The notes under the pieces: generated by a model
The model's input: only the letters and a program-made list of their open reading frames with translations
What the model was told of the DNA's origin: nothing
The model's database searches: none
Shown here: piece by piece, positions 5,420 to 24,690 of the stretch
Position numbering within the stretch: the first letter of the stretch is position 1
How the letters are laid out: the number at the start of each line of letters is the position of its first letter
IMG/VR virus record: IMGVR_UViG_3300037141_000279
Location: 32,296-96,295 of that record
From: a virus
Reading direction: 5' to 3' (one strand)
DNA length: 64,000 nt
Position numbers and translations under genes: made by a program

Positions 5420-8104
5420 TTAGAAGCCCGCAACCGCAGGATACGAGCCCCGCGACCACGCGAGTGCAGGAGCCGTGATCGTGCTATTTAAGGCCCCTCC
5501 TGAAGTCGTCCCCGTGCCGCCACCAGGAGCCGCTGCGTTGGTAAACATCAAGTCACGTACTACTGCCGCATCCCCTGATATCCTGATTCCAGGGGTCACC
5601 GCGTTAGATGTGACAGCTACAGCGTACCACCCTGGAACCATGTTCACGGTCACAGGGCCGCCAGCCAGCGGGATTTTCATATCAGTTGCGTTTGTGGGGC
5701 AGATGGTAGTCCCTGGCAGTGCTCCTGTGTGGCAAACCAGCGGCACGTTTGCCGCGCCGTTTAGACACCCTGGACCATAAATGCCGATGTCGTAAAGATT
5801 TGAGGTATTGTCTGACAAGGTACCTTCATGGTAGGTTATATATGATAAAACAGAAACAAAATATGGGAGGTAAAAAGAATAAAGGAACGTGGCGTTTTGC
5901 GTGAGCCCTAGTATGACGTTTGCACTTGAAGTTGACGCCCCAGTGCTGAACGCAGTGGCTCCTGCTGGAAAAAGCGCCGTCGCCAACACGACCGCACCAG
6001 TTCCTGTCACGCCATTTGAGAGATCAGACGCAGCCAACGTCGCGTCCACATAGTCCGTCCCGTTGCCTCGCAGCACATGCCCTGCTGGCGCTGCGCCACC
6101 GATCTGAAACCCTACAGATGTGTTGATCACCCCTGTCACAGACAGCGGCGCGGGCATAGTTATTAAAGTTGCCCCAGGCGTGCCTGCGTGCGCGAAGACG
6201 AGCGTTGCAGTCGGGTTTGTGCCTGCCCCTATCACATCACTAAGAGACCAACTGTCGTAGGCGGACGCAGCGCCGTTCCAATATTGTCCGGTGATCGCTA
6301 GATACCCAGAACTTTGATTCAAGATGTTGGTCGCGGGGGTTGTCGCTTGAATCGTAATATCCGTAGATGCGAACAACGCAGATGAAGATGTGATATTGCC
6401 CGCGTTAAGCGTTCCGACGAAATTAAATCCACCACCACCACCATACCCAGCATTCGTGAATGTCGTCACCATGCCTGGGTTTGTGCCTGCCGAGACCGTT
6501 CGCGTAATCGTGAACGAAGCATCTGCGCTCGCAGCGCCATTCCAATAAGTCGCCCCGAGTTTGAAAATAGGCGAAGACTGGTTTGCCCCGCTCGTCGCAG
6601 CGATCTTCAAATCAAGCGAGGTATTTCCGACGAAATTTACTTTTCCGCCTGCTGCGTATATGGCATAGTTGTTCGCGCCTGTCCCGAAGTCCTCGATGTA
6701 CAAACCGTAATTGTTCGTGGCGATGCTGTTCGCCTCCGAATAGAACCCATAAAGATTCGTGATAGTCGGAGTCGCTAGGTTATTTGCAAAAGTCAGCGCC
6801 TTAAAAGCGATGGCATTTGTAATGGTCGGAATGCCGACGGTTCCCAAAGTTGATTCTGTCTGACCCCCAGCACGCACTCCGATAAGGTTAGTTATTGAAG
6901 TACCCGCATCGTGCGAAACCCCAACCGCAAAGTGTCCGCCTACTGCGGTATCGGCATGGCTCCCATCCCAAACGGTCGCCTGAACCACAATACCCAATAG
7001 GGCGGCATTGGATGGAATATCGCCAGTCAAATTGCAATGGTCGTAAAGATCAACGTCAAAAAATCCGGCAGAAACAAAAGAATTTGGGTCTGTGACGCTT
7101 CGTAAACCTGCAGATGCACGAATTCCGACAGTATCGACAACGCTTCCCGTGACATTAGATACAAGGTTCCAACACGCGATAGCCGCGCCAGGGCCATTCT
7201 GCGCGATGACCTGAAACGCCGGAAGGTCTGTCGTGTCTGCCGTTCTGCTAGGGCTTATCTCGGTGATCTCATTTCTTGCTGTGACACCATATGTGAGAAC
7301 ATTTGTAACCCAATAAGGATCGATGCTAGAGTTTGGGTCTCCGAAATGCGTACTCGGTGTAATGATTGAAGGACTGGCAACTGTAACTAGCCCAGTGATT
7401 TTATTGTACGTGAATCCCGCGTTGCCGCCGAATGCACCACTGTCGTTGAATTGCACATCTGTGTTCAATCCGCCTGGAGTCGCTGGCGGAACAAGACCTG
7501 TGATATCCGCTGCGTTAATCGCACGAAACGTCGGCAACGCATCTGATCCACCCGAGCCAGGACCTGCCAAAAAGAAATGAGGATGTTGAGGAAGCAGAGT
7601 CGGTGTCAGCGTTCCAATAGCTGTGACAGGCGCACTCGCTGTCGCGGTGAACAGCACGCCATCCCCTGTAAACGAAACAGAGGTGACCCCCGCAATAAAA
7701 GTAGTCGGGTAAAAAATGATGTTCCCGCCCGTCGTCGCATACGGCACCATCTGCCCGATGTCCACCGTTGTGCCCGTGGCTTCAGGGAACTGCCACCACA
7801 TTGGAGATTTGTTGATGCGCGCGCCATTTTGGTCATAGAACGTGACCAAATAATATGTGCCCAATCCGTTCACATTCTGAGGATTCAATTCTGCGTTGCT
7901 GTAAATTTGGGCAATGGGGTCAGGAGCGTTCGGCAGAATGTCGCCGTTTGCATCAAATTGAAAATACACCTCTAACTCTGCGGGCACAATTCCGTACGGA
8001 GCCGCGATGATCGTCGCATCAACATTGAGTTGAAACGAGATCGACCCGTTCGGCACCGCCAAACTTGAGATGTTCTGTATATGCCCGTTCACTAAAGTGA
8101 TCAT
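5420..8104 (-). CDS. Tail fiber / tailspike
   Basis: 895 aa, G/T/A rich; PGGLNTDVQFNDSGAFGGNAGFTYNK fiber repeat; SD GAGG before MITLVNG. Confidence 0.75.
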   Translation of the reverse strand: MITLVNGHIQNISSLAVPNGSISFQLNVDATIIAAPYGIVPAELEVYFQFDANGDILPNAPDPIAQIYSNAELNPQNVNGLGTYYLVTFYDQNGARINKSPMWWQFPEATGTTVDIGQMVPYATTGGNIIFYPTTFIAGVTSVSFTGDGVLFTATASAPVTAIGTLTPTLLPQHPHFFLAGPGSGGSDALPTFRAINAADITGLVPPATPGGLNTDVQFNDSGAFGGNAGFTYNKITGLVTVASPSIITPSTHFGDPNSSIDPYWVTNVLTYGVTARNEITEISPSRTADTTDLPAFQVIAQNGPGAAIACWNLVSNVTGSVVDTVGIRASAGLRSVTDPNSFVSAGFFDVDLYDHCNLTGDIPSNAALLGIVVQATVWDGSHADTAVGGHFAVGVSHDAGTSITNLIGVRAGGQTESTLGTVGIPTITNAIAFKALTFANNLATPTITNLYGFYSEANSIATNNYGLYIEDFGTGANNYAIYAAGGKVNFVGNTSLDLKIAATSGANQSSPIFKLGATYWNGAASADASFTITRTVSAGTNPGMVTTFTNAGYGGGGGFNFVGTLNAGNITSSSALFASTDITIQATTPATNILNQSSGYLAITGQYWNGAASAYDSWSLSDVIGAGTNPTATLVFAHAGTPGATLITMPAPLSVTGVINTSVGFQIGGAAPAGHVLRGNGTDYVDATLAASDLSNGVTGTGAVVLATALFPAGATAFSTGASTSSANVILGLTQNATFLYSFYLPYFVSVLSYITYHEGTLSDNTSNLYDIGIYGPGCLNGAANVPLVCHTGALPGTTICPTNATDMKIPLAGGPVTVNMVPGWYAVAVTSNAVTPGIRISGDAAVVRDLMFTNAAAPGGGTGTTSGGALNSTITAPALAWSRGSYPAVAGF

Positions 8105-17487: not shown

Positions 17488-18818
17488 TTACTTGAGCCTG
17501 TTCTTTTTTCGGTACTCCCGCACCGTAGCCACATAATGGTCCGCACATCTCTTAGTCGGAAAATGCGCGACGTAGTCCACCATCTGCGCGCACCATTCTT
17601 CCCCATGATACGCAGTGATGTCTTCCCAAATCTCATACAGTGCGTGCGGCATTAAGACCCTCCAGTCGGACAGTGATAACCAGATTGCCGCCCATGCGCT
17701 CGACCGAATAGTAGTTGGCGAGGTTGAGTGCAACCGTGCCCATCTTTGCACGCAGGTCTTTCTCGAATTGATTCACTGCGTCGGTGATAACTCTCTCTTT
17801 CAAGTTCGTCACATGTTTGGCGATATCAGCGTGAAAATCCCGCATTAGACGATCTTCAAACGTGCCTTGGGGCACTGCGACTACTGGTATCATCGGCTGT
17901 TCCAATTCTCGCGCACAAACGACACCACCCAGACTGCGACGCCAACCATCAGAATTGAGAACCCGATCTTCATAATCAAATCACCAGTCGTTTCCATATT
18001 TCCTCCCGTCGATTATTCCTGAGACGACATTTCCTGTTCCATTGCTGCCGTTCGACCTTGATTGCGAGCATGTTGAACCATCGTCTTCCCTGCTTCGGCA
18101 TCCACACCATGCATCGCACGATATCCTGCGAACGTGAACACAAAGCGCGCCGTGCGCCCTTGGGGAGCCAGTTCAACGTATTTGAATTCCCACCAGGGAT
18201 AAAGTTCATCCAGGCGCGTGGCCGTCTGCATTAGGATATCATCGATGCCGTCGGGGTTGAACCCCTGCTTTGGTCCCGCGTGCTGAACGAAAGTTTTCGT
18301 TGGAAAGATCGCATCGGGATACACGATCTTGACCGTCACCTTGCGGAACAATCGGTTCCCAGCTTTATCTTTCATCATTGAAAACATCCTCCACTGTTTG
18401 GATGATGATGGTCTCATCCTGTATCTGGGCGATCTGTTCAAACGTCACTTCACCTGATGGGTACCGCTGGCAGAACACACAATCTTCTGCCCGAGCCTTG
18501 CCGTGCTGGCATGGGTCGCACTCGCAGTGATCGCACATACACGCGTCGCAGGTGATGCAGACGCCTACAATGTGTCGGCAGAAATCGCAGTCAGGGTCTC
18601 TCATGTTAAACCTTTTCGGCCAGAGCAGCACCCAACTTCACTTGCAGGGCGTCATACTGCGCCAACAGAAAACGCTGGTCGCCTGGGGTGACGGCGAGGT
18701 TCGCGCCGAGGTTCCCACGGATCGCCTTGAAAATTTCTTCCAGCGTGCGTGTCTCTTTTACTACACGCTGGCTGTTCTTGACCGCGCGGGCTGCCTGTTC
18801 GCTAACTGAGTGAGCCAT
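17488..18818 (-). CDS. Run of small hypothetical ORFs (17488-17652, 17633-17905, 18013-18378, 18365-18604, 18606-18818)
   Basis: Tightly packed, several with SDs; downstream of the promoter at 18899-18927. Confidence 0.5.
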
Positions 18819-18898
18819 ATATTCTCCTAGCAGATTGAATTTTAAGGAAGCGACGGATTGTCTGCTCACAACCCGTCGCCATATCGCTGTCAGATTGC

Positions 18899-18927
18899 AT
18901 CTTGCCAGAATCTCAACCCAATGTCAA
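18899..18927 (-). promoter_or_regulatory. Sigma70-type promoter
   Basis: TTGACA-17-CAAGAT with upstream A-tract. Confidence 0.55.
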
Positions 18928-18938
18928 GTCTTTTCTTT

Positions 18939-19363
18939 GGGAATTATATAGTTGACTACCTTGATCCAACGTTCCGCAACGCAACCAAGGATATTTCTCT
19001 AAGGGACTCCCCTGCATTGTGTTCGCAAAAATTGTGGCGACTCACAATCCATTCGGCCCACTCTTCTACAGAGGGGTTTCCAACCAAAGTCTTCCGTAAC
19101 TCATCGGTCGGCATTCCATCAATCAGATAACGAACCATTTCTTCGGCTTGCGTAGCGTCGAACAAATTAGTCCCTACGGGTTCGTGCTTCATCGGATAAG
19201 CCGTATGCTCGTTGAAGTTTGGTTTGAAGCTAATTCCTGCATCGGGGTTGAAGTTTTCAGGTAGCCTCCATTCAAGGAAACGATCTACCATGTACTTAAT
19301 TTGTTCATCGTTCATCTGGCATATCTCCTTTATTTTCATGTGGGAGTTATCTATATAATTCCC
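18939..19363. mobile_element. Non-autonomous TIR cassette 1 (IS1595-like ends), 425 bp, one passenger gene
   Basis: TIRs GGGAATTATATAGTTGACTACC (18939-18960) and GGGAGTTATCTATATAATTCCC (19342-19363); direct repeat TTTTCTTT at 18931-18938 and 19364-19371. Confidence 0.8.
18956..19315 (-). CDS. Cassette 1 passenger, hypothetical protein
   Basis: AAGGAG SD just inside the TIR; MNDEQIKYMVDRFLEWRLPENFNPD; stop TAG lies in the other TIR. Confidence 0.75.
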   Translation of the reverse strand: MNDEQIKYMVDRFLEWRLPENFNPDAGISFKPNFNEHTAYPMKHEPVGTNLFDATQAEEMVRYLIDGMPTDELRKTLVGNPSVEEWAEWIVSRHNFCEHNAGESLREISLVALRNVGSR

Positions 19364-19370
19364 TTTTCTT

Positions 19371-19706
19371 TTATGGTGTTGGAATAATCGCAGAGACTTC
19401 ATTCGAAAATGCAGACTCTGCCGTGCTGTTTACGGCAGTCACTACGTAGAAGTAAGTCACCCCTGCGATATCATTTTTGTCTGCAAATGAAGTCGCAGTC
19501 GATGAGCCGATCTTGGTGTATGGGCCGCCGTGGGTTCCCGAAACATACACGTTGTAGGAGGTGGCACCTGTCGATGCAGTCCAGGTAAGCGTGACCACAT
19601 GACCCACCACCACCACATAGGTTTTTGATGCTTTATCCTGTGCCCTCGCGCCGACAGCCGAAGCCATCAGCGCGAGAGCCAGGACGAATGTGCGAAGCCA
19701 CTTCAC
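19371..19706 (-). CDS. Secreted fibronectin type III domain protein
   Basis: Signal peptide; VTLTWTAS...YNVY...YFYVVTAVN...ESAFSNEV. Confidence 0.85.
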   Translation of the reverse strand: MKWLRTFVLALALMASAVGARAQDKASKTYVVVVGHVVTLTWTASTGATSYNVYVSGTHGGPYTKIGSSTATSFADKNDIAGVTYFYVVTAVNSTAESAFSNEVSAIIPTP

Positions 19707-20371
19707 GAACGATTGCCTCTCACGAAGAGAGAAGCAACTTCAATTCGTGCCTTGATTTCCATCTTGACGATGTTTGTCGCAGAATCAGTGACTGTAATCG
19801 TAAACGTGAACGACCCCGCCGCCGCTGGTGTACCAGAGATCACACCTGTGGAAGACAACGTGAGGCCTGTCGGCAACGATCCGGTAGTGACTGCGAACGT
19901 ATATGGAGTCACACCGCCTGTGGCAACAAGGCTTGTCGTGTAGTTCACGCCAATATTAGCCGCGGGCAGAGATGAAGTTGAAACGGAAAGCGTTGGAATC
20001 ACAGTCACAGTGTACGCCTGTGAAGCAGCGACCGTAGGCGTTTCTGCGTCTGCAACGTGAATTGTGAATGTGCCGGAACCTGCAGTCGTCGGTGTACCTG
20101 AAATCACACCAGTGCTTGCCGCAAGCGTGAGTCCCGCAGGAAGGGTGCCTGCCGCCACAGAAAACGTATAAGGTGCAAGTCCACCAGCGGCGCTGACTGT
20201 AGTTTGATAAACAAGACCAACCATCCCACCAGGAATACTTGTCGGTGTGATTACCACCGCACCTGCGTTGACGGTCAGCGTGAGTGATTTGGTTGCTTTA
20301 TCCTGAGCCCGAGACAGCCCAGGAAGAAACAACATGAACACCAATGCAAAAAGAATCTTACGAATTCTCAT
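19703..20371 (-). CDS. Secreted protein with two putative Ig (He_PIG-like) domains
   Basis: Signal peptide; 2x GGxxPYTF...GxLPxGLTL...GVISGTP. Confidence 0.85.
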   Translation of the reverse strand: MRIRKILFALVFMLFLPGLSRAQDKATKSLTLTVNAGAVVITPTSIPGGMVGLVYQTTVSAAGGLAPYTFSVAAGTLPAGLTLAASTGVISGTPTTAGSGTFTIHVADAETPTVAASQAYTVTVIPTLSVSTSSLPAANIGVNYTTSLVATGGVTPYTFAVTTGSLPTGLTLSSTGVISGTPAAAGSFTFTITVTDSATNIVKMEIKARIEVASLFVRGNRS

Positions 20372-20705
20372 CTGTCTTTCCTCCTATTTGAATGTCAGCC
20401 GAGGACGCAGCCGAGTCGATTACTTGAATTGTAAAACTAAACGAGCCCGAACTACTTGGAATGCCTGAGACCACACCAGAAGAACTCAAGGTGAGACCAG
20501 CCGGAAGACCTCCAATCACAACACTCCATATGTATGGTGCCGTCCCTCCAGTCGCCGTGAATTGTTGAGCGTACACCTCTCCAACTGTTGCGGCTGGAAG
20601 ATTAACAGTGATCGTCAACACTGGCGGGGGTGGCGCAGGCGTTGGTGACGTACACCCCGCCAGCATCACCACAAACAACAGAGCCAACAGATAAACAAAT
20701 CGCAT
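20358..20705 (-). CDS. Lipoprotein with putative Ig domain
   Basis: Lipobox LAGC; GGTAPYIW...LPAGLTLSSSGVVSG. Confidence 0.85.
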   Translation of the reverse strand: MRFVYLLALLFVVMLAGCTSPTPAPPPPVLTITVNLPAATVGEVYAQQFTATGGTAPYIWSVVIGGLPAGLTLSSSGVVSGIPSSSGSFSFTIQVIDSAASSADIQIGGKTDENS

Positions 20706-20725
20706 TGATATCTCCCTCGCCCAAC

Positions 20726-20754
20726 ACTCTAATCTGCGTTCAACTCAATGTCAA
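20726..20754 (-). promoter_or_regulatory. Sigma70-type promoter
   Basis: TTGACA-17-TAGAGT with upstream A8 tract. Confidence 0.55.
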
Positions 20755-20765
20755 GGATTTTTTTT

Positions 20766-21230
20766 GGGAATTATATAGTTAACTCCCTCGCTCTTAGGCC
20801 AGCGTGAAGTCAACATAGTATTCTTTGCCTTGCTCGAATTGAGCTAAAGCTGCGTCGTTGAGTACATTTAAGTTGAGGTTTCCGCCCGGAGTAGATGCGA
20901 AGAATTTCTTATTCTCCTCGCTGCCGGAGTAAACCGGATACAAGTACACTGTTTTGTTCTTTTCATCCTTGAAACTGCATACCATTTTTGCTCGAACTGA
21001 CATTTGGTGCTCCTTTTGCAAGGCCATTCGTGCGGCCTCGACAAGCTTAACGAGCGCATCAGAACGCTCCCTAATCTCTTCTGCTGTGGGATCATCATGG
21101 CGAGGCCCGAGACGAATATGCTCGATGCAATCACAACGCCTGTCTATAACCTGACCGTCGCCAACCCATTTATTTTCATCATTGAGGACTTTCATCGCTT
21201 CTCCTTAAGGGAGTTAACTATATAATTCCC
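20766..21230. mobile_element. Non-autonomous TIR cassette 2 (IS1595-like ends), 465 bp
   Basis: Perfect 22-bp TIRs GGGAATTATATAGTTAACTCCC (20766-20787) and its reverse complement (21209-21230); T8 on both flanks. Confidence 0.8.
20794..21195 (-). CDS. Cassette 2 passenger(s), hypothetical; second in-frame start at 21003
   Basis: AAGGAG SD before 21195 and again before MSVRAKMVC at 21003. Confidence 0.7.
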   Translation of the reverse strand: MKVLNDENKWVGDGQVIDRRCDCIEHIRLGPRHDDPTAEEIRERSDALVKLVEAARMALQKEHQMSVRAKMVCSFKDEKNKTVYLYPVYSGSEENKKFFASTPGGNLNLNVLNDAALAQFEQGKEYYVDFTLA

Positions 21231-21648
21231 TTTTTTTTTCATATTTCTCAAACCAGAACACTATCGGAATTTTTACCTCAACAACCAAACCAAATCTCTC
21301 TGCGTGCCGAAAAGCAGAATAGTTTCGCCGACATACGTCTACCCGCCTCTGCATCTGCTGTCGCCATGATTCAAGCGGAGATGCATGTTTGTCTATATTG
21401 CACGCTCGACAAGATGGAAAGAGATTGTCTAACCTATCGTTCTCTGGTCGCTCGAAGCCCGCCACCGAGCCAGGATGTCTCAAAAGCCATTCCGCAGTCT
21501 TCCACCACTCCCGATGGACAGGATCAACATGGTCTGCGTGCCACCCTTTTTCGGGAAGTTCACAACCACAATATGCACACTTCCCTCCAAACTTCAAACG
21601 TAAAACAGAGCGTTGTGTTTTATTTAATGTCATTTCTTTTTTGACCAA
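21214..21648 (-). CDS. HNH endonuclease
   Basis: CAYCG...WHADHVDP...NLFPSCRACNIDK; stop codon lies in the cassette 2 TIR. Confidence 0.9.
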   Translation of the reverse strand: MVKKEMTLNKTQRSVLRLKFGGKCAYCGCELPEKGWHADHVDPVHREWWKTAEWLLRHPGSVAGFERPENDRLDNLFPSCRACNIDKHASPLESWRQQMQRRVDVCRRNYSAFRHAERFGLVVEVKIPIVFWFEKYEKKRELYS

Positions 21649-21974
21649 TGTGGCGTGCGGTCACTGTGCGCATCCTGGTGGCACTTCGGGCAGATGAAGA
21701 CCGAATTATCCAGCGAGATTTCGCCACCCTTGCCGCGGTGCTTCTGTTCGTGCATGTGTCCTGACTTTTCAGTCACTGGCGTGGCGCACAACTCACATTC
21801 ACCTTTACATCGGAGCCAAAGTTGATGCCTTATATCTGCGACGACAGGCGCATAAAACGCTTGGGTGATATCCTTGCCTGATGCTTGTGCGAATGCCTGT
21901 GCTGATTTTCGATTTTTGAAAATACGAATCGCATGCTCTGTTTTGTTTATCTCTATCCAAACAAGTTTTCTCAT
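21630..21974 (-). CDS. HNH endonuclease-like protein
   Basis: CELC...HMHE...RGKGG...NSVFICPKCH. Confidence 0.75.
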   Translation of the reverse strand: MRKLVWIEINKTEHAIRIFKNRKSAQAFAQASGKDITQAFYAPVVADIRHQLWLRCKGECELCATPVTEKSGHMHEQKHRGKGGEISLDNSVFICPKCHQDAHSDRTPHWSKKK

Positions 21975-22420
21975 TTATATTTCTCCAAATAATCGGCGCA
22001 GGCACGCAAACGCTCCACTGATTCTTTGGCGTTTCCAATGGTAAAATTGCACGGATGGCATAAAATTCCACGAATCTGCTTCGTGGTGTGGTTGTGGTCC
22101 ACACACCAAGGGTTAATCATTTTGCGTTTTTTAGGATAATACCCAACTTTAGAACTTCTGCATGATGCGCACTTACGCCCCTGCTTTTCAAACTTGATTG
22201 CTTTTTCTTCTGCTGTGATGCCGTAGGTTCTTTTTACTCTGGACCTGCTTGCAGTTAACGCGTGCTGTTTCTTATGACTTCGTCCCCACAATTTAGAACG
22301 AAGCCGACCGCAAGAAAGACAGTACGAATCAACTTTTCCTTTTCGTGTGATTTGACGAGGCTTCCGATGACATCTGCAACAGAGGCCTTTCGGCTTTACC
22401 CATGTCTTATTCTTCTGCAC
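21971..22420 (-). CDS. Endonuclease VII-family nuclease
   Basis: QGRKCASC...VDHNHTTKQIRGILCHPCN. Confidence 0.85.
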   Translation of the reverse strand: MQKNKTWVKPKGLCCRCHRKPRQITRKGKVDSYCLSCGRLRSKLWGRSHKKQHALTASRSRVKRTYGITAEEKAIKFEKQGRKCASCRSSKVGYYPKKRKMINPWCVDHNHTTKQIRGILCHPCNFTIGNAKESVERLRACADYLEKYK

Positions 22421-23033
22421 TATGCGCCCCCAAAAACTCCATAGCCCATTTTAGCACAACATCCTTCCTTTGCATAGACGCAGAAATAGTTTTTTTCGTC
22501 GCGGGCTCGCAGTGTTCAGCCGCTTTGATTGCATCTTCAATCGTCGCGCGGTCTTCAGGCGAGACGTAGAAAGAAAAATCTAAGTCCATCCAATCCCCCG
22601 ACTCTTCAGGCATTTTGAGGGTAGTAGCTATCAGTTTGTGAAGGTCTTTAACTGTGATTTTTGAGTCAAGAGCCGCCTCAAATAGCGTTTGAGGTAAAAC
22701 GATGGCATAGTCCTTGGCTTGCCTCAACTTCATCGCCTTTGATATACCCATAACCTCTAATTGGGCGAGAGTAAACGTGTCACTTAAATCCCTAACTGTC
22801 AAGAAGTACCGATGAAGGACTGCCGCTGATTTCTTCGACACCATCGCAACCTCCCGCAGATAGTCGCGAAAGGTATCATGGTTGATTCGCCAATATTGCA
22901 TCTCGGAAACCTCAAGCAGCAACCACCCCAAAGTTGCGTACCCACGCTCGCACTCATCTTCAGCTTCTGAGAGACCACACGCTTGGTTATTCACACGACC
23001 CAAGACGTACTCACCTGTTCTTGGTTCTTCCAT
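22407..23033 (-). CDS. Hypothetical protein
   Basis: 208 aa, coupled to both neighbours. Confidence 0.6.
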   Translation of the reverse strand: MEEPRTGEYVLGRVNNQACGLSEAEDECERGYATLGWLLLEVSEMQYWRINHDTFRDYLREVAMVSKKSAAVLHRYFLTVRDLSDTFTLAQLEVMGISKAMKLRQAKDYAIVLPQTLFEAALDSKITVKDLHKLIATTLKMPEESGDWMDLDFSFYVSPEDRATIEDAIKAAEHCEPATKKTISASMQRKDVVLKWAMEFLGAHSAEE

Positions 23034-23034
23034 A

Positions 23035-24690
23035 TTAGGCTCCACACTCCCCACCTTTTGAAAGTTCACAGGCGTTACCTGCCTCTTCAAATACCTCACC
23101 CACATGTTTCAACGCTTCTGACAGCGGAGCGGCGTTCAGCGGCTGCCCGTCCCGAGCCCCGTCTGGGTACACAGTGATGCCGCGCATCTTCGGAAGATAT
23201 TTCAAAAGCATCTTACCGAACGACTGCACGGTGTTTTCGTTGTTCAGCTTAGAACCCCAAGCGGGCAGATTTATTGTGCTGGATATTGAATGATCAACAT
23301 ATTGCTGAACCCACGCCTGAAATGCTGTGCGGCGTTCCACATCTTCAGCTAAGGAATAGGCATCTTCAATCAAGTCCAGGGACACACCAGAGTCTAGCAG
23401 TCGTTTCGCAGTCGGGTCAACCACAAACTGATATTGCCAATTTGACCCCTTCAGATATCGCCGTTTGTATGCGGCGCAGAAAATCGGTTCAATTCCAGTT
23501 GTGGTTTCCGCGATGATGCCGATAGTCCCGACAGGAGCAATCGCGCGGGTCTTGACGGGTTGAGACAAATCCCATTTGTCCGCGTACGGTTTCACCAGCA
23601 CGCCCGACTGCGCGTAGACCTGCAGATATTTCTCCAACTCTTCGTCTGCGCCGTACCTCTTACCGTGTACCAGCAACCATTCGTGAATCCCCATCAGGCC
23701 GAGACCCAGGCGGCGGTTCTTGCTGCGGACTTGGTCAACTTTCGGAAATGGGACATTTGAATAAACCGTACCTGCGAGCAGGAATGCCGCACCCAGTTCG
23801 GTCACTTCTTGCATTTCACCCAACGATTCAATACGGGCTAGATTGATGGAGCCCAAGTTACACACGTCGTTGTCATCCGCCGATGTGACTTCCGTGCATG
23901 CGTTGCGGAGTGTTTCCTTGGAGTTCTTGCCGCAGTCAATTGAAAACCCAGGCTCCCCTGTCTGCAGCATGTGTCGTAAGGCGGACCAATACACCATCTG
24001 AGCCAGAGAGTGTTTTGTGTGTTTCTCGTCGAAATATGCTTCAAAAAATTCATCATTGATTTGAACGCTGATGTTCGTCCCGTCCATCGTCGCTGGGAAG
24101 TTGTAATCTTTCGCTTTCAACGCGCGAACTTCAGGGCTCCAGTTTTTGAGTGTGATGAATTTCATGATGTCGGGATGATCCCAACGAAGCCCCGCCCAAA
24201 TAGCAGAGCGGCGGCTACCACCTTGCATGATGTATCGCCCTGCCTCGTTGACCATCTGCATCAGAGCGAGAGGTCCTGTGGAGAATCCACCTGTTTTCCG
24301 AATCAACCGACCTTCGGCGCGTACCTCACTATAGTCGCTGCCTATTCCACCGCCCGTCATCAAACTGAGTGTAGCCTTCTGCATCAGTTCAGACCAACCC
24401 TCGCGAGAGTCTTCCGCGCGGAACAGGAAGCAATTATTCACTTGGTGGTACAACCGACCTGTCGCCGCCAGATATCGTCCGCCAGGGATAAACTTTCGCC
24501 GAGCAATCAATTGCTGCAATCTCTCGGTGGTTCCTTTTCCAGCATGGACGGCGCGCATCACATGCTTCGGAACACGGTATGCAATGTTATGCCACTGTTC
24601 AGGCATTCCATTTTCTAACGTATGGCTGTACTTCTGCAGCATGATAGTCTCTGCAAACTTACTCAATTCAACCTTCGGTAGTTCAATCAT
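23035..24690 (-). CDS. nrdJ: Class II (B12-dependent) ribonucleotide reductase
   Basis: PGGR, NNCF, GGGIG, RRSA, NACTE, CNLGSINL, GLGLMG, IAPVGT, GIEP; no small-subunit gene in the window. Confidence 0.9.
   Translation of the reverse strand: MIELPKVELSKFAETIMLQKYSHTLENGMPEQWHNIAYRVPKHVMRAVHAGKGTTERLQQLIARRKFIPGGRYLAATGRLYHQVNNCFLFRAEDSREGWSELMQKATLSLMTGGGIGSDYSEVRAEGRLIRKTGGFSTGPLALMQMVNEAGRYIMQGGSRRSAIWAGLRWDHPDIMKFITLKNWSPEVRALKAKDYNFPATMDGTNISVQINDEFFEAYFDEKHTKHSLAQMVYWSALRHMLQTGEPGFSIDCGKNSKETLRNACTEVTSADDNDVCNLGSINLARIESLGEMQEVTELGAAFLLAGTVYSNVPFPKVDQVRSKNRRLGLGLMGIHEWLLVHGKRYGADEELEKYLQVYAQSGVLVKPYADKWDLSQPVKTRAIAPVGTIGIIAETTTGIEPIFCAAYKRRYLKGSNWQYQFVVDPTAKRLLDSGVSLDLIEDAYSLAEDVERRTAFQAWVQQYVDHSISSTINLPAWGSKLNNENTVQSFGKMLLKYLPKMRGITVYPDGARDGQPLNAAPLSEALKHVGEVFEEAGNACELSKGGECGA

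Follow-up and report, generated by a model that had tools for sequence, protein, structure and literature searches.

A stretch of 64,000 nt from the IMG/VR virus record IMGVR_UViG_3300037141_000279 (positions 32,296-96,295 of 96,295 bp; CheckV completeness estimate 97%), called the window below and used for all coordinates, contains two short segments of 425 bp (cassette 1, 18939-19363) and 465 bp (cassette 2, 20766-21230), each enclosed by 22-bp terminal inverted repeats (TIRs) and by perfect 8-bp direct repeats that abut it externally. Our analysis indicates with high confidence that each segment derives from an insertion sequence (IS) of the IS1595 family and is a non-autonomous form with one gene, a "mobile insertion cassette". 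Both cassettes are recently inserted.

The 22-mer GGGAATTATATAGTTAACTCCC occurs four times in the window, as two inverted pairs and with 0-2 mismatches, against an expectation of 0 chance copies (100 shuffles); no further copy exists in the whole 96,295-bp record. Local genes are all on the minus strand, on which each cassette consists, nearly end to end, of one open reading frame (ORF) with a Shine-Dalgarno sequence 13-26 nt inside the upstream end and a stop codon in the downstream end or 6 nt from it: cargo 1 has AAGGAG 9 nt before its ATG and stops inside the left end, and cargo 2 has AAGGAG 13 nt inside the right end and stops 6 nt from the left end. Neither ORF has a Pfam match, and neither cassette contains a transposase. 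Direct reading and the 22-mer search bear out the cassette coordinates, 22-bp TIRs and 8-bp duplications proposed in an initial annotation made from the sequence alone, as the ORF positions do its account of unrelated single genes with a Shine-Dalgarno sequence near one TIR and a stop in or beside the other. That annotation had also foreseen the C-terminus that the adjacent HNH endonuclease would regain upon excision, and removal of cassette 2 and one duplication in silico yields it. In relatives of the HNH protein, the stretch that follows a conserved FWFE(K/R)Y is variable and 5-12 residues long; cassette 2, when it inserted, thus altered only a non-conserved tail.

Elements with the same ends are numerous. 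A search pattern derived from the 22-mer, with 19 specified bases, matched at least 117 viral-contig stretches and 97 stretches of genome or metagenome-assembled genome (MAG) contigs. Defining an element as paired inverted copies with identical 8-mers outside, and removing redundancy, we obtained at least 83 elements of 171-3089 bp, all with perfect 8-bp duplications; counts given out of 83 refer to those listed. The duplications are diverse among the listed elements (for example CTAATGAG, CTATTCTG and AGATCATG) and are therefore not a by-product of simple tracts. An IS1595-family transposase of ~305 aa is encoded by 39 of the 83 (five of these copies truncated), and the other 44 are transposase-free, with unrelated cargo or none. 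The transposases of elements with these ends match DDE_Tnp_IS1595 (PF12762, E 7e-40 to 4e-47), carry an N-terminal Zn_ribbon_IS1595 (PF12760, E 1e-8 to 3e-12) and score 187-207 bits with the NCBIfam model NF033547 (transpos_IS1595), for which the cut-off is 75. Residues D135, D205, E241 and K248 are invariant in 12 aligned transposases (55-87% identity to the first sequence); K248 stands seven residues past the third catalytic residue, E241, which gives the DDE + K arrangement. A DDEK pattern reportedly marks particular subgroups of the IS1595 family. The smallest complete transposase-bearing element measures 1308 bp, and in larger autonomous elements, of up to 3.1 kb, the transposase gene is preceded or followed by passenger genes. 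The initial annotation had staked its reading on the existence of a cognate autonomous element and had called for other cargoes under these ends: the former exists, with the same ends, 8-bp duplications and an IS1595 transposase, and the latter are found in the transposase-free listed elements. A cognate transposase, an 8-bp duplication and the catalytic residues, the marks by which IS1595-family membership can be tested, are thus all present.

[quoted passage not shown] At the small end of the series we observed a true MITE in a Candidatus Acidiferrales MAG (L204:949-1119), a 171-bp member without an ORF, whose two ends are identical and whose duplication is TAAAATTG. The nearest plasmid-borne IS1595 transposases are 34-45% identical to those described here, and these plasmid-borne relatives have no similar ends, so that no named IS can be attached to the family and it represents a distinct sub-lineage. 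The window ends read GGGAATTAT, and this GGnnATTAT end type may place them in the ISNwi1 subgroup.

The autonomous copies have two further features. In many of them (L030:9836-11143, L007:343-1757, L113:2459-4230 and others), the end upstream of the transposase contains TTGACT, followed 17 nt later by TAGTTA within a conserved TAGTTATCTT; this looks like an inward promoter with its −35 box inside the inverted repeat. An ORF antisense to the transposase, of 396-586 aa and with its ATG inside the inverted repeat, is open across the whole element in L113:2472-4229, L115:644-2338, L007:344-1744 and L039:9067-10719. That this antisense ORF persists where identity is down to 35% is striking; Pfam gave no match for it, and it is probably a shadow frame of the conserved transposase gene.

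The absence of a transposase from the window had been pointed out in the initial annotation, and it extends to the whole 96-kb record, which encodes no IS1595 transposase; movement must therefore depend on a copy elsewhere. Autonomous copies occur in phages as well as in bacterial chromosomes from similar metagenomes (peat, bog and soil), an indirect argument for mobilisation in trans, which the data on the family support, as they do the delivery of accessory genes. The same ends are found in MAGs of Acidobacteriota, Alphaproteobacteria, Nitrospirota, Verrucomicrobiota, Bacteroidota and other phyla, where the flanking genes include those for enolase, exonuclease VII, Dus, LepA and Lgt; given such ordinary chromosomal neighbours, the lineage lives in bacterial chromosomes as well as in phages and is not phage-specific. 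The record also encodes one Phage_integrase-domain protein (G000:C1:17729-18175, E 2e-16), ~14 kb before the start of the window and ~33 kb from the cassettes, which suggests that the phage is temperate and makes a prophage stage plausible.

Empty sites in other metagenomes provide direct evidence for insertion. The public runs that contain this stretch are peat, bog and soil metagenomes, and contigs (not raw reads) of four runs were aligned to window 17500-22500. Contigs from two other peat runs (records 11 and 14) cross both cassettes with zero differences. A soil run from a different study (X7) contains a related phage, 92-99% identical, in which both sites are empty: one contig joins 18928 to 19362, skipping 433 nt, i.e. 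exactly cassette 1 (425) plus one duplication (8); and one joins 20757 to 21232, skipping 474 nt, i.e. cassette 2 (465), one duplication (8) and one T of a homopolymer run, with 8 nt at the joint that fit either side. No 22-mer is left at either site. Independent contigs spanning the junctions argue against an assembly artefact. In the peat runs X5 and X6, some contigs match only the inverted repeat (window 20749-20791 and 21203-21236), beyond which their sequence is unrelated; the same communities therefore contain further elements with such ends.

The empty sites bear on a reading in which the 22-mers are operator or terminator palindromes flanking "moron" genes that arrived by illegitimate recombination, the 8-mers matching by chance in A/T tracts. 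The duplications of the two cassettes do differ by only one base, and each right end with its T-tract scores terminator-like on the plus strand. All local genes, however, lie on the other strand; unrelated genes in hundreds of unrelated contigs are bounded by these ends, there with duplications (CTAATGAG or AGATCATG, for instance) other than simple tracts; and cassette 1 recurs with other flanks. A cargo-free relative that retained a 22-mer had been named in advance as the observation that would favor an operator; the empty alleles in X7 retain none, which excludes this role, and we consider the reading as a whole highly improbable.

Much the same evidence speaks to the alternative raised in the initial annotation, a tyrosine-recombinase inversion site, under which a site-specific recombinase would act at the 22-mers and the segments would be modules for inversion or, more broadly, for cassette exchange. 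Each 22-mer has an 8-6-8 dyad, as was claimed when the TIR was called a near-palindrome, but the dyad is weak (−5 to −8 kcal/mol as RNA) and only three of the four copies fold, the fourth having lost it. Although the record does encode the integrase-domain protein mentioned above, the gene is distant from the cassettes and the only one of its kind, and no resolvase is encoded in the record. The 8-bp direct duplications differ from site to site in the 83 listed elements, the empty alleles lack the 22-mer, and elements with identical ends encode a DDE transposase rather than a recombinase. No strand-changing joint was found in the aligned contigs, which, being contigs only, say little about inversion or circles. 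On the strength of the duplications, the empty sites and the transposase of the sister elements, we reject this alternative as very unlikely.

The cassettes themselves have also moved. In a metagenome contig (L384), cassette 1 recurs within ends of this kind (DNA 92.7% and cargo 98% identical), with unrelated flanks and a different duplication, TAAGTAAA; in a different phage (L303), a homologue of cargo 2, 60% identical, lies in a cassette whose duplication is CAATGAAA. Movement as a unit is thus documented by the empty sites in X7 and by cassette 1 elsewhere with another duplication; together with IS-type inverted ends around a passenger gene and no transposase inside, this gives the two segments the properties by which mobile insertion cassettes can be recognised in sequence data. 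A remnant of cassette 1 (L300:1452-1760, on the same contig as L386) keeps the left end and the first 80 codons, but a deletion reaching to the duplication has removed the C-terminal part and the right end, and the duplication stands 3 nt before a TTGACA promoter; judging from this arrangement, a cargo gene seems to have been fixed there through the loss of one end.

Some observations weigh against identifying the two segments as mobile insertion cassettes that bring accessory genes to the phage. The empty sites are supported by contigs only and not by raw reads; the X7 junction of cassette 2 is off by one T in a homopolymer run, and that of cassette 1 lies 2 nt off the predicted point, in a stretch that is ~7% diverged. 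No donor transposase was identified for the host of this phage. Neither cargo has a known function, so the term "accessory gene" is borrowed by analogy with sister cassettes; and neither window cassette has a recognisable promoter, so expression is assumed.

Both insertions lie at the same place relative to a promoter. On the minus strand, each cassette reads TIR, A-rich duplication, 3 nt and TTGACA, in the order set out in the initial annotation. The two promoters begin with a common 15-mer, TTGACATTGRGTTGA (18913-18927 and 20740-20754); we tried this 15-mer as a target feature and rejected it, as it is absent from other promoter-adjacent sites and is a feature of this phage's promoters. A related perfect palindrome is present at 8019-8033, and the TTGACATTGRGTTGA class may represent a phage-specific class of promoters or operators.

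Across the family, A+T amounts to 78% in the 8 nt next to the ends versus 42% in the following 8 nt, and the duplications have the consensus H-W-W-N-N-W-W-D. TTGAC exactly 3 nt past the duplication and pointing away from the element occurs at 15 of the 83 listed sites, where ~0.3 would be expected, i.e. at ~50 times chance; it occurs once at 2 nt, once at 4 nt and never at any remaining offset up to 12 nt, those of 5-12 nt included. Most sites in the 3-nt register have a credible −10 box 16-18 nt further on. Counting single ends gives the same picture: among 321 distinct ends listed, there are 19 cases at 3 nt versus 0-4 at other offsets. Two null sets were used: all 8-mers of these loci with a fit to the duplication consensus, of which 0.19% have TTGAC at that offset; and such A/T-rich 8-mers outside long ORFs, for which the figure is 0.64% counting both sides. 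Even against the latter, the enrichment is still ~28-fold (18% versus 0.64%). In the window, only six positions combine an A/T 8-mer, 3 nt and TTGACA (one mismatch allowed), and two of these are occupied. The orientation of the elements to the promoter is mixed (12 co-directional, 5 opposite), and the bias in the MAG set (8 of 37) is similar to that in the viral set. The promoter association is real and sharply positioned, and it covers about one insertion in five. The term "promoter-targeted", used in the initial annotation, is accordingly only partly upheld: the 3-nt register is strongly enriched, but the term overstates the case, as about four-fifths of the listed insertions are not next to TTGAC.

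What causes the register is a separate question from what the elements are. We see an even chance that the same kind of element hits any A/T-rich 8-mer and that the promoter association is pure survivorship, only harmless spots persisting in compact phage genomes. The many insertions away from TTGAC fit this explanation, as does a target consensus that is merely A/T-rich with G/C brackets. UP-element A-tracts lie at a fixed distance from the −35 box owing to the geometry of RNA polymerase, and this fixed place alone could set the 3-nt register. Such an origin of the bias would also agree with the strong purifying selection to which the rarity of IS in phages has been ascribed (PMC11602168). 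Less easily reconciled with survivorship are the enrichment that persists against A/T-rich 8-mers outside long ORFs, the sharpness of the spike at 3 nt, the occurrence of both orientations and the similar bias in MAG and viral sets. Overall, we judge pure selection and some contribution of the enzyme about equally likely; the enzyme could favour such DNA either for the structure of an A-tract with G/C brackets or by somehow reading TTGAC, a motif that its own end also contains.

In its more specific form, which we put forward only tentatively, a contribution of the enzyme would mean that the transposition complex itself recognises promoter architecture (A/T tract, 3 nt, TTGACA) and delivers cargo to a "safe harbour" upstream of promoters, where the duplication rebuilds the A-tract. 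This layout resembles, as far as the letters go, the element's own end, in which an A/T-rich stretch is followed by TTGACT, the putative −35 box of the inward promoter. Outside this proposal, we rejected the idea that the target mimics the end: the layouts are alike but the spacings are not, the tip of the end being 13 nt from TTGACT and the edges of the duplication 3 and 11 nt from TTGACA; and the 3-nt spacers are also unlike the end sequence. A literature search found no paper on a promoter-register preference, and the 3-nt bias has apparently not been described for the IS1595 family.

We propose the following course of events for the two cassettes. An autonomous form of ~1.3 kb, with the same 22-bp ends and a ~305-aa transposase comprising an N-terminal zinc ribbon and a D-D-E-K core, would supply the enzyme, either from a copy in the host chromosome or from a co-resident phage; the transposase would act in trans, binding both ends of a cassette and moving it. 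The cassette would insert into an A/T-rich 8-mer bracketed by G/C-richer DNA, which would be duplicated. Both window cassettes landed in the A-tract upstream of a σ70-type promoter, 3 nt before TTGACA, and owing to the duplication the promoter keeps its A-tract and is intact. The cargo genes, co-directional with the surrounding operon and equipped with their own ribosome-binding sites, are probably expressed by read-through from the upstream gene.

By analogy with sister cassettes, the two cargos may be accessory genes useful to the phage. An N-terminal module of ~70 aa in cargo 1 recurs at 75-90% identity in hundreds of small, mostly hypothetical proteins, and the structure model of this cargo is poor (pLDDT 62). 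The model of cargo 2 (pLDDT 78) predicts a long helix and a small OB-like β-barrel, with weak, OB-fold-like matches in the PDB (E >= 0.1); the C-terminal barrel is a widespread phage module of 70-75 aa, phrog_6978. Since most homologues of this module sit outside cassettes, ordinary small phage genes appear to have been picked up. Searches of Pfam, PHROGs, PADLOC and NCBIfam for a cargo function gave only phrog_6978, for cargo 2, which itself has no assigned function, and the atlas neighbours of both cargos are unnamed, mostly viral clusters. Most cargos in the family are likewise unnamed. Those that can be named comprise DNA methylases of the N6/N4 (three), C5 (one) and Dam (one) types, Mom, a SAM lyase, a protein with a PAPS-reductase domain, SieB, a mycobacteriophage L5 gp82-like protein, a helix-turn-helix protein and a zinc-finger protein; functions in DNA modification, anti-restriction and exclusion prevail among them.

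The cassettes share features with several known systems. The IS1595 family includes "transporter IS" with passenger genes (Siguier, Gagnevin and Chandler 2009, as cited in PMC3129680). Like members of that family, the autonomous relatives described here have an IS1595 DDE domain with an N-terminal zinc ribbon, 8-bp A/T-rich duplications and ends of ~22 bp starting with GG; like transporter IS, many copies carry passengers beside the transposase, in elements of up to 3.1 kb. They differ in that the window elements are wholly without transposase, that the lineage is frequent in viral contigs and that insertion is biased to 3 nt upstream of TTGACA. Another precedent for the cassettes is the mobile insertion cassettes already known, for example MIC231 of Bacillus cereus, which stems from IS231 (De Palmenaer et al. 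2004, as cited in PMC3129680); in these, too, inverted IS ends enclose one or more passenger genes, the transposase is lacking, the target is duplicated and dependence on transposase in trans is presumed. Unlike MIC231, the cassettes described here belong to the IS1595 rather than the IS4/IS231 lineage, reside in phage genomes, are usually filled by one small gene and, with a single pair of ends, come with dozens of distinct cargos.

Phage morons and the mycobacteriophage elements MPME1/2 are similar in that small extra genes lie near promoters, between essential genes, and that close relatives may have or lack them. MPME1/2 have 11-bp repeats and are not known to make a classical 8-bp duplication, and morons are not known to have a defined insertion machinery; for the cassettes described here, in contrast, ends, duplication and transposase family can all be named. 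A survey of viral genomes found MITEs in 0.01% of viral sequences and treated them as non-coding; it makes no mention of IS1595 or of cargo or passenger genes, and IS are regarded there as rare in phage genomes, almost any insertion being harmful (PMC11602168). With such MITEs the cassettes share a non-autonomous, TIR-bounded structure and a location in phage sequences, and the family includes the ORF-less 171-bp member; unlike them, the window elements carry coding cargo. No publication on IS1595 cassettes in phages was found in our literature search.

The coordinates of the cassettes and of the promoters next to them are collected in Table 1.

Table 1. Features of the two cassettes and adjoining sequences (window coordinates; TSD, target-site duplication)
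Feature	Position	Strand or reading	Remarks
Promoter 1	18899-18927	-	TTGACA 18922-18927, 17-nt spacer, CAAGAT 18899-18904; drives gene 18606-18821
TSD of cassette 1, promoter-side copy	18931-18938	TTTTCTTT on + strand	direct reading
Left 22-bp TIR of cassette 1	18939-18960	+	includes the cargo stop codon
Cargo gene 1, 120 aa	18956-19318	-	~70-aa conserved N-terminal module and variable C-terminal part
Right 22-bp TIR of cassette 1	19342-19363	-	upstream end relative to the cargo gene
TSD of cassette 1, second copy	19364-19371	TTTTCTTT	1-nt overlap with the stop codon of the upstream gene 19371-19706
Promoter 2	20726-20754	-	TTGACA-17-TAGAGT; drives lipoprotein-like gene 20358-20705
TSD of cassette 2, promoter-side copy	20758-20765	T8 on + strand	direct reading
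Left 22-bp TIR of cassette 2	20766-20787	+	
Cargo gene 2, 133 aa	20794-21195	-	
Right 22-bp TIR of cassette 2	21209-21230	-	provides the final five codons and stop of the HNH gene
HNH endonuclease gene	21214-21648	-	outside the element; non-conserved C-terminal tail replaced by the insertion of cassette 2
TSD of cassette 2, second copy	21231-21238	T8	within the 3' end of the HNH gene; an extra T follows at 21239

The genes around the cassettes were also inspected. Just upstream of cassette 2, three small nuclease genes stand in a row (HNH, 21214-21648; HNH, 21630-21974; endonuclease VII-like, 21971-22420) and adjoin a ribonucleotide reductase gene (23035-24690), forming a local cluster of mobile-type genes. 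Between the cassettes (19371-20705) lie three genes whose products have signal-peptide- or lipoprotein-like N-termini and Ig-like repeats, with weak PHROG matches to Hoc-like decoration and tail proteins. No syntenic relatives emerged when the HNH protein and the downstream 71-aa protein were used as queries; the HNH gene alone is common to 80 loci, which show no further synteny and no cassette ends, and the cultured-phage collection holds no close relative.

For the gain of a single accessory gene between essential phage genes, the usual explanation is still illegitimate recombination of an unspecified kind. In the phage described here, a defined machinery can account for two such genes: IS1595-type ends and an 8-bp duplication, with a transposase that would act in trans. 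The wider interest lies in the size of the family and the range of its cargo in environmental phages, and in the sharp register upstream of −35 boxes. The named cargos that stand out (DNA methyltransferases, Mom, SAM lyase, PAPS reductase and SieB) are of the kinds that decide conflicts between phage and host and between phages. A preference for the position 3 nt upstream of the −35 box would explain why insertions are tolerated, and if it stems from the enzyme itself, the register would be one of few examples of promoter-directed transposition. Should the transposition complex indeed recognise promoters, these elements would provide a defined transposon route for moron-type gene gain between transcription units, including the gain of DNA-modification and exclusion genes.

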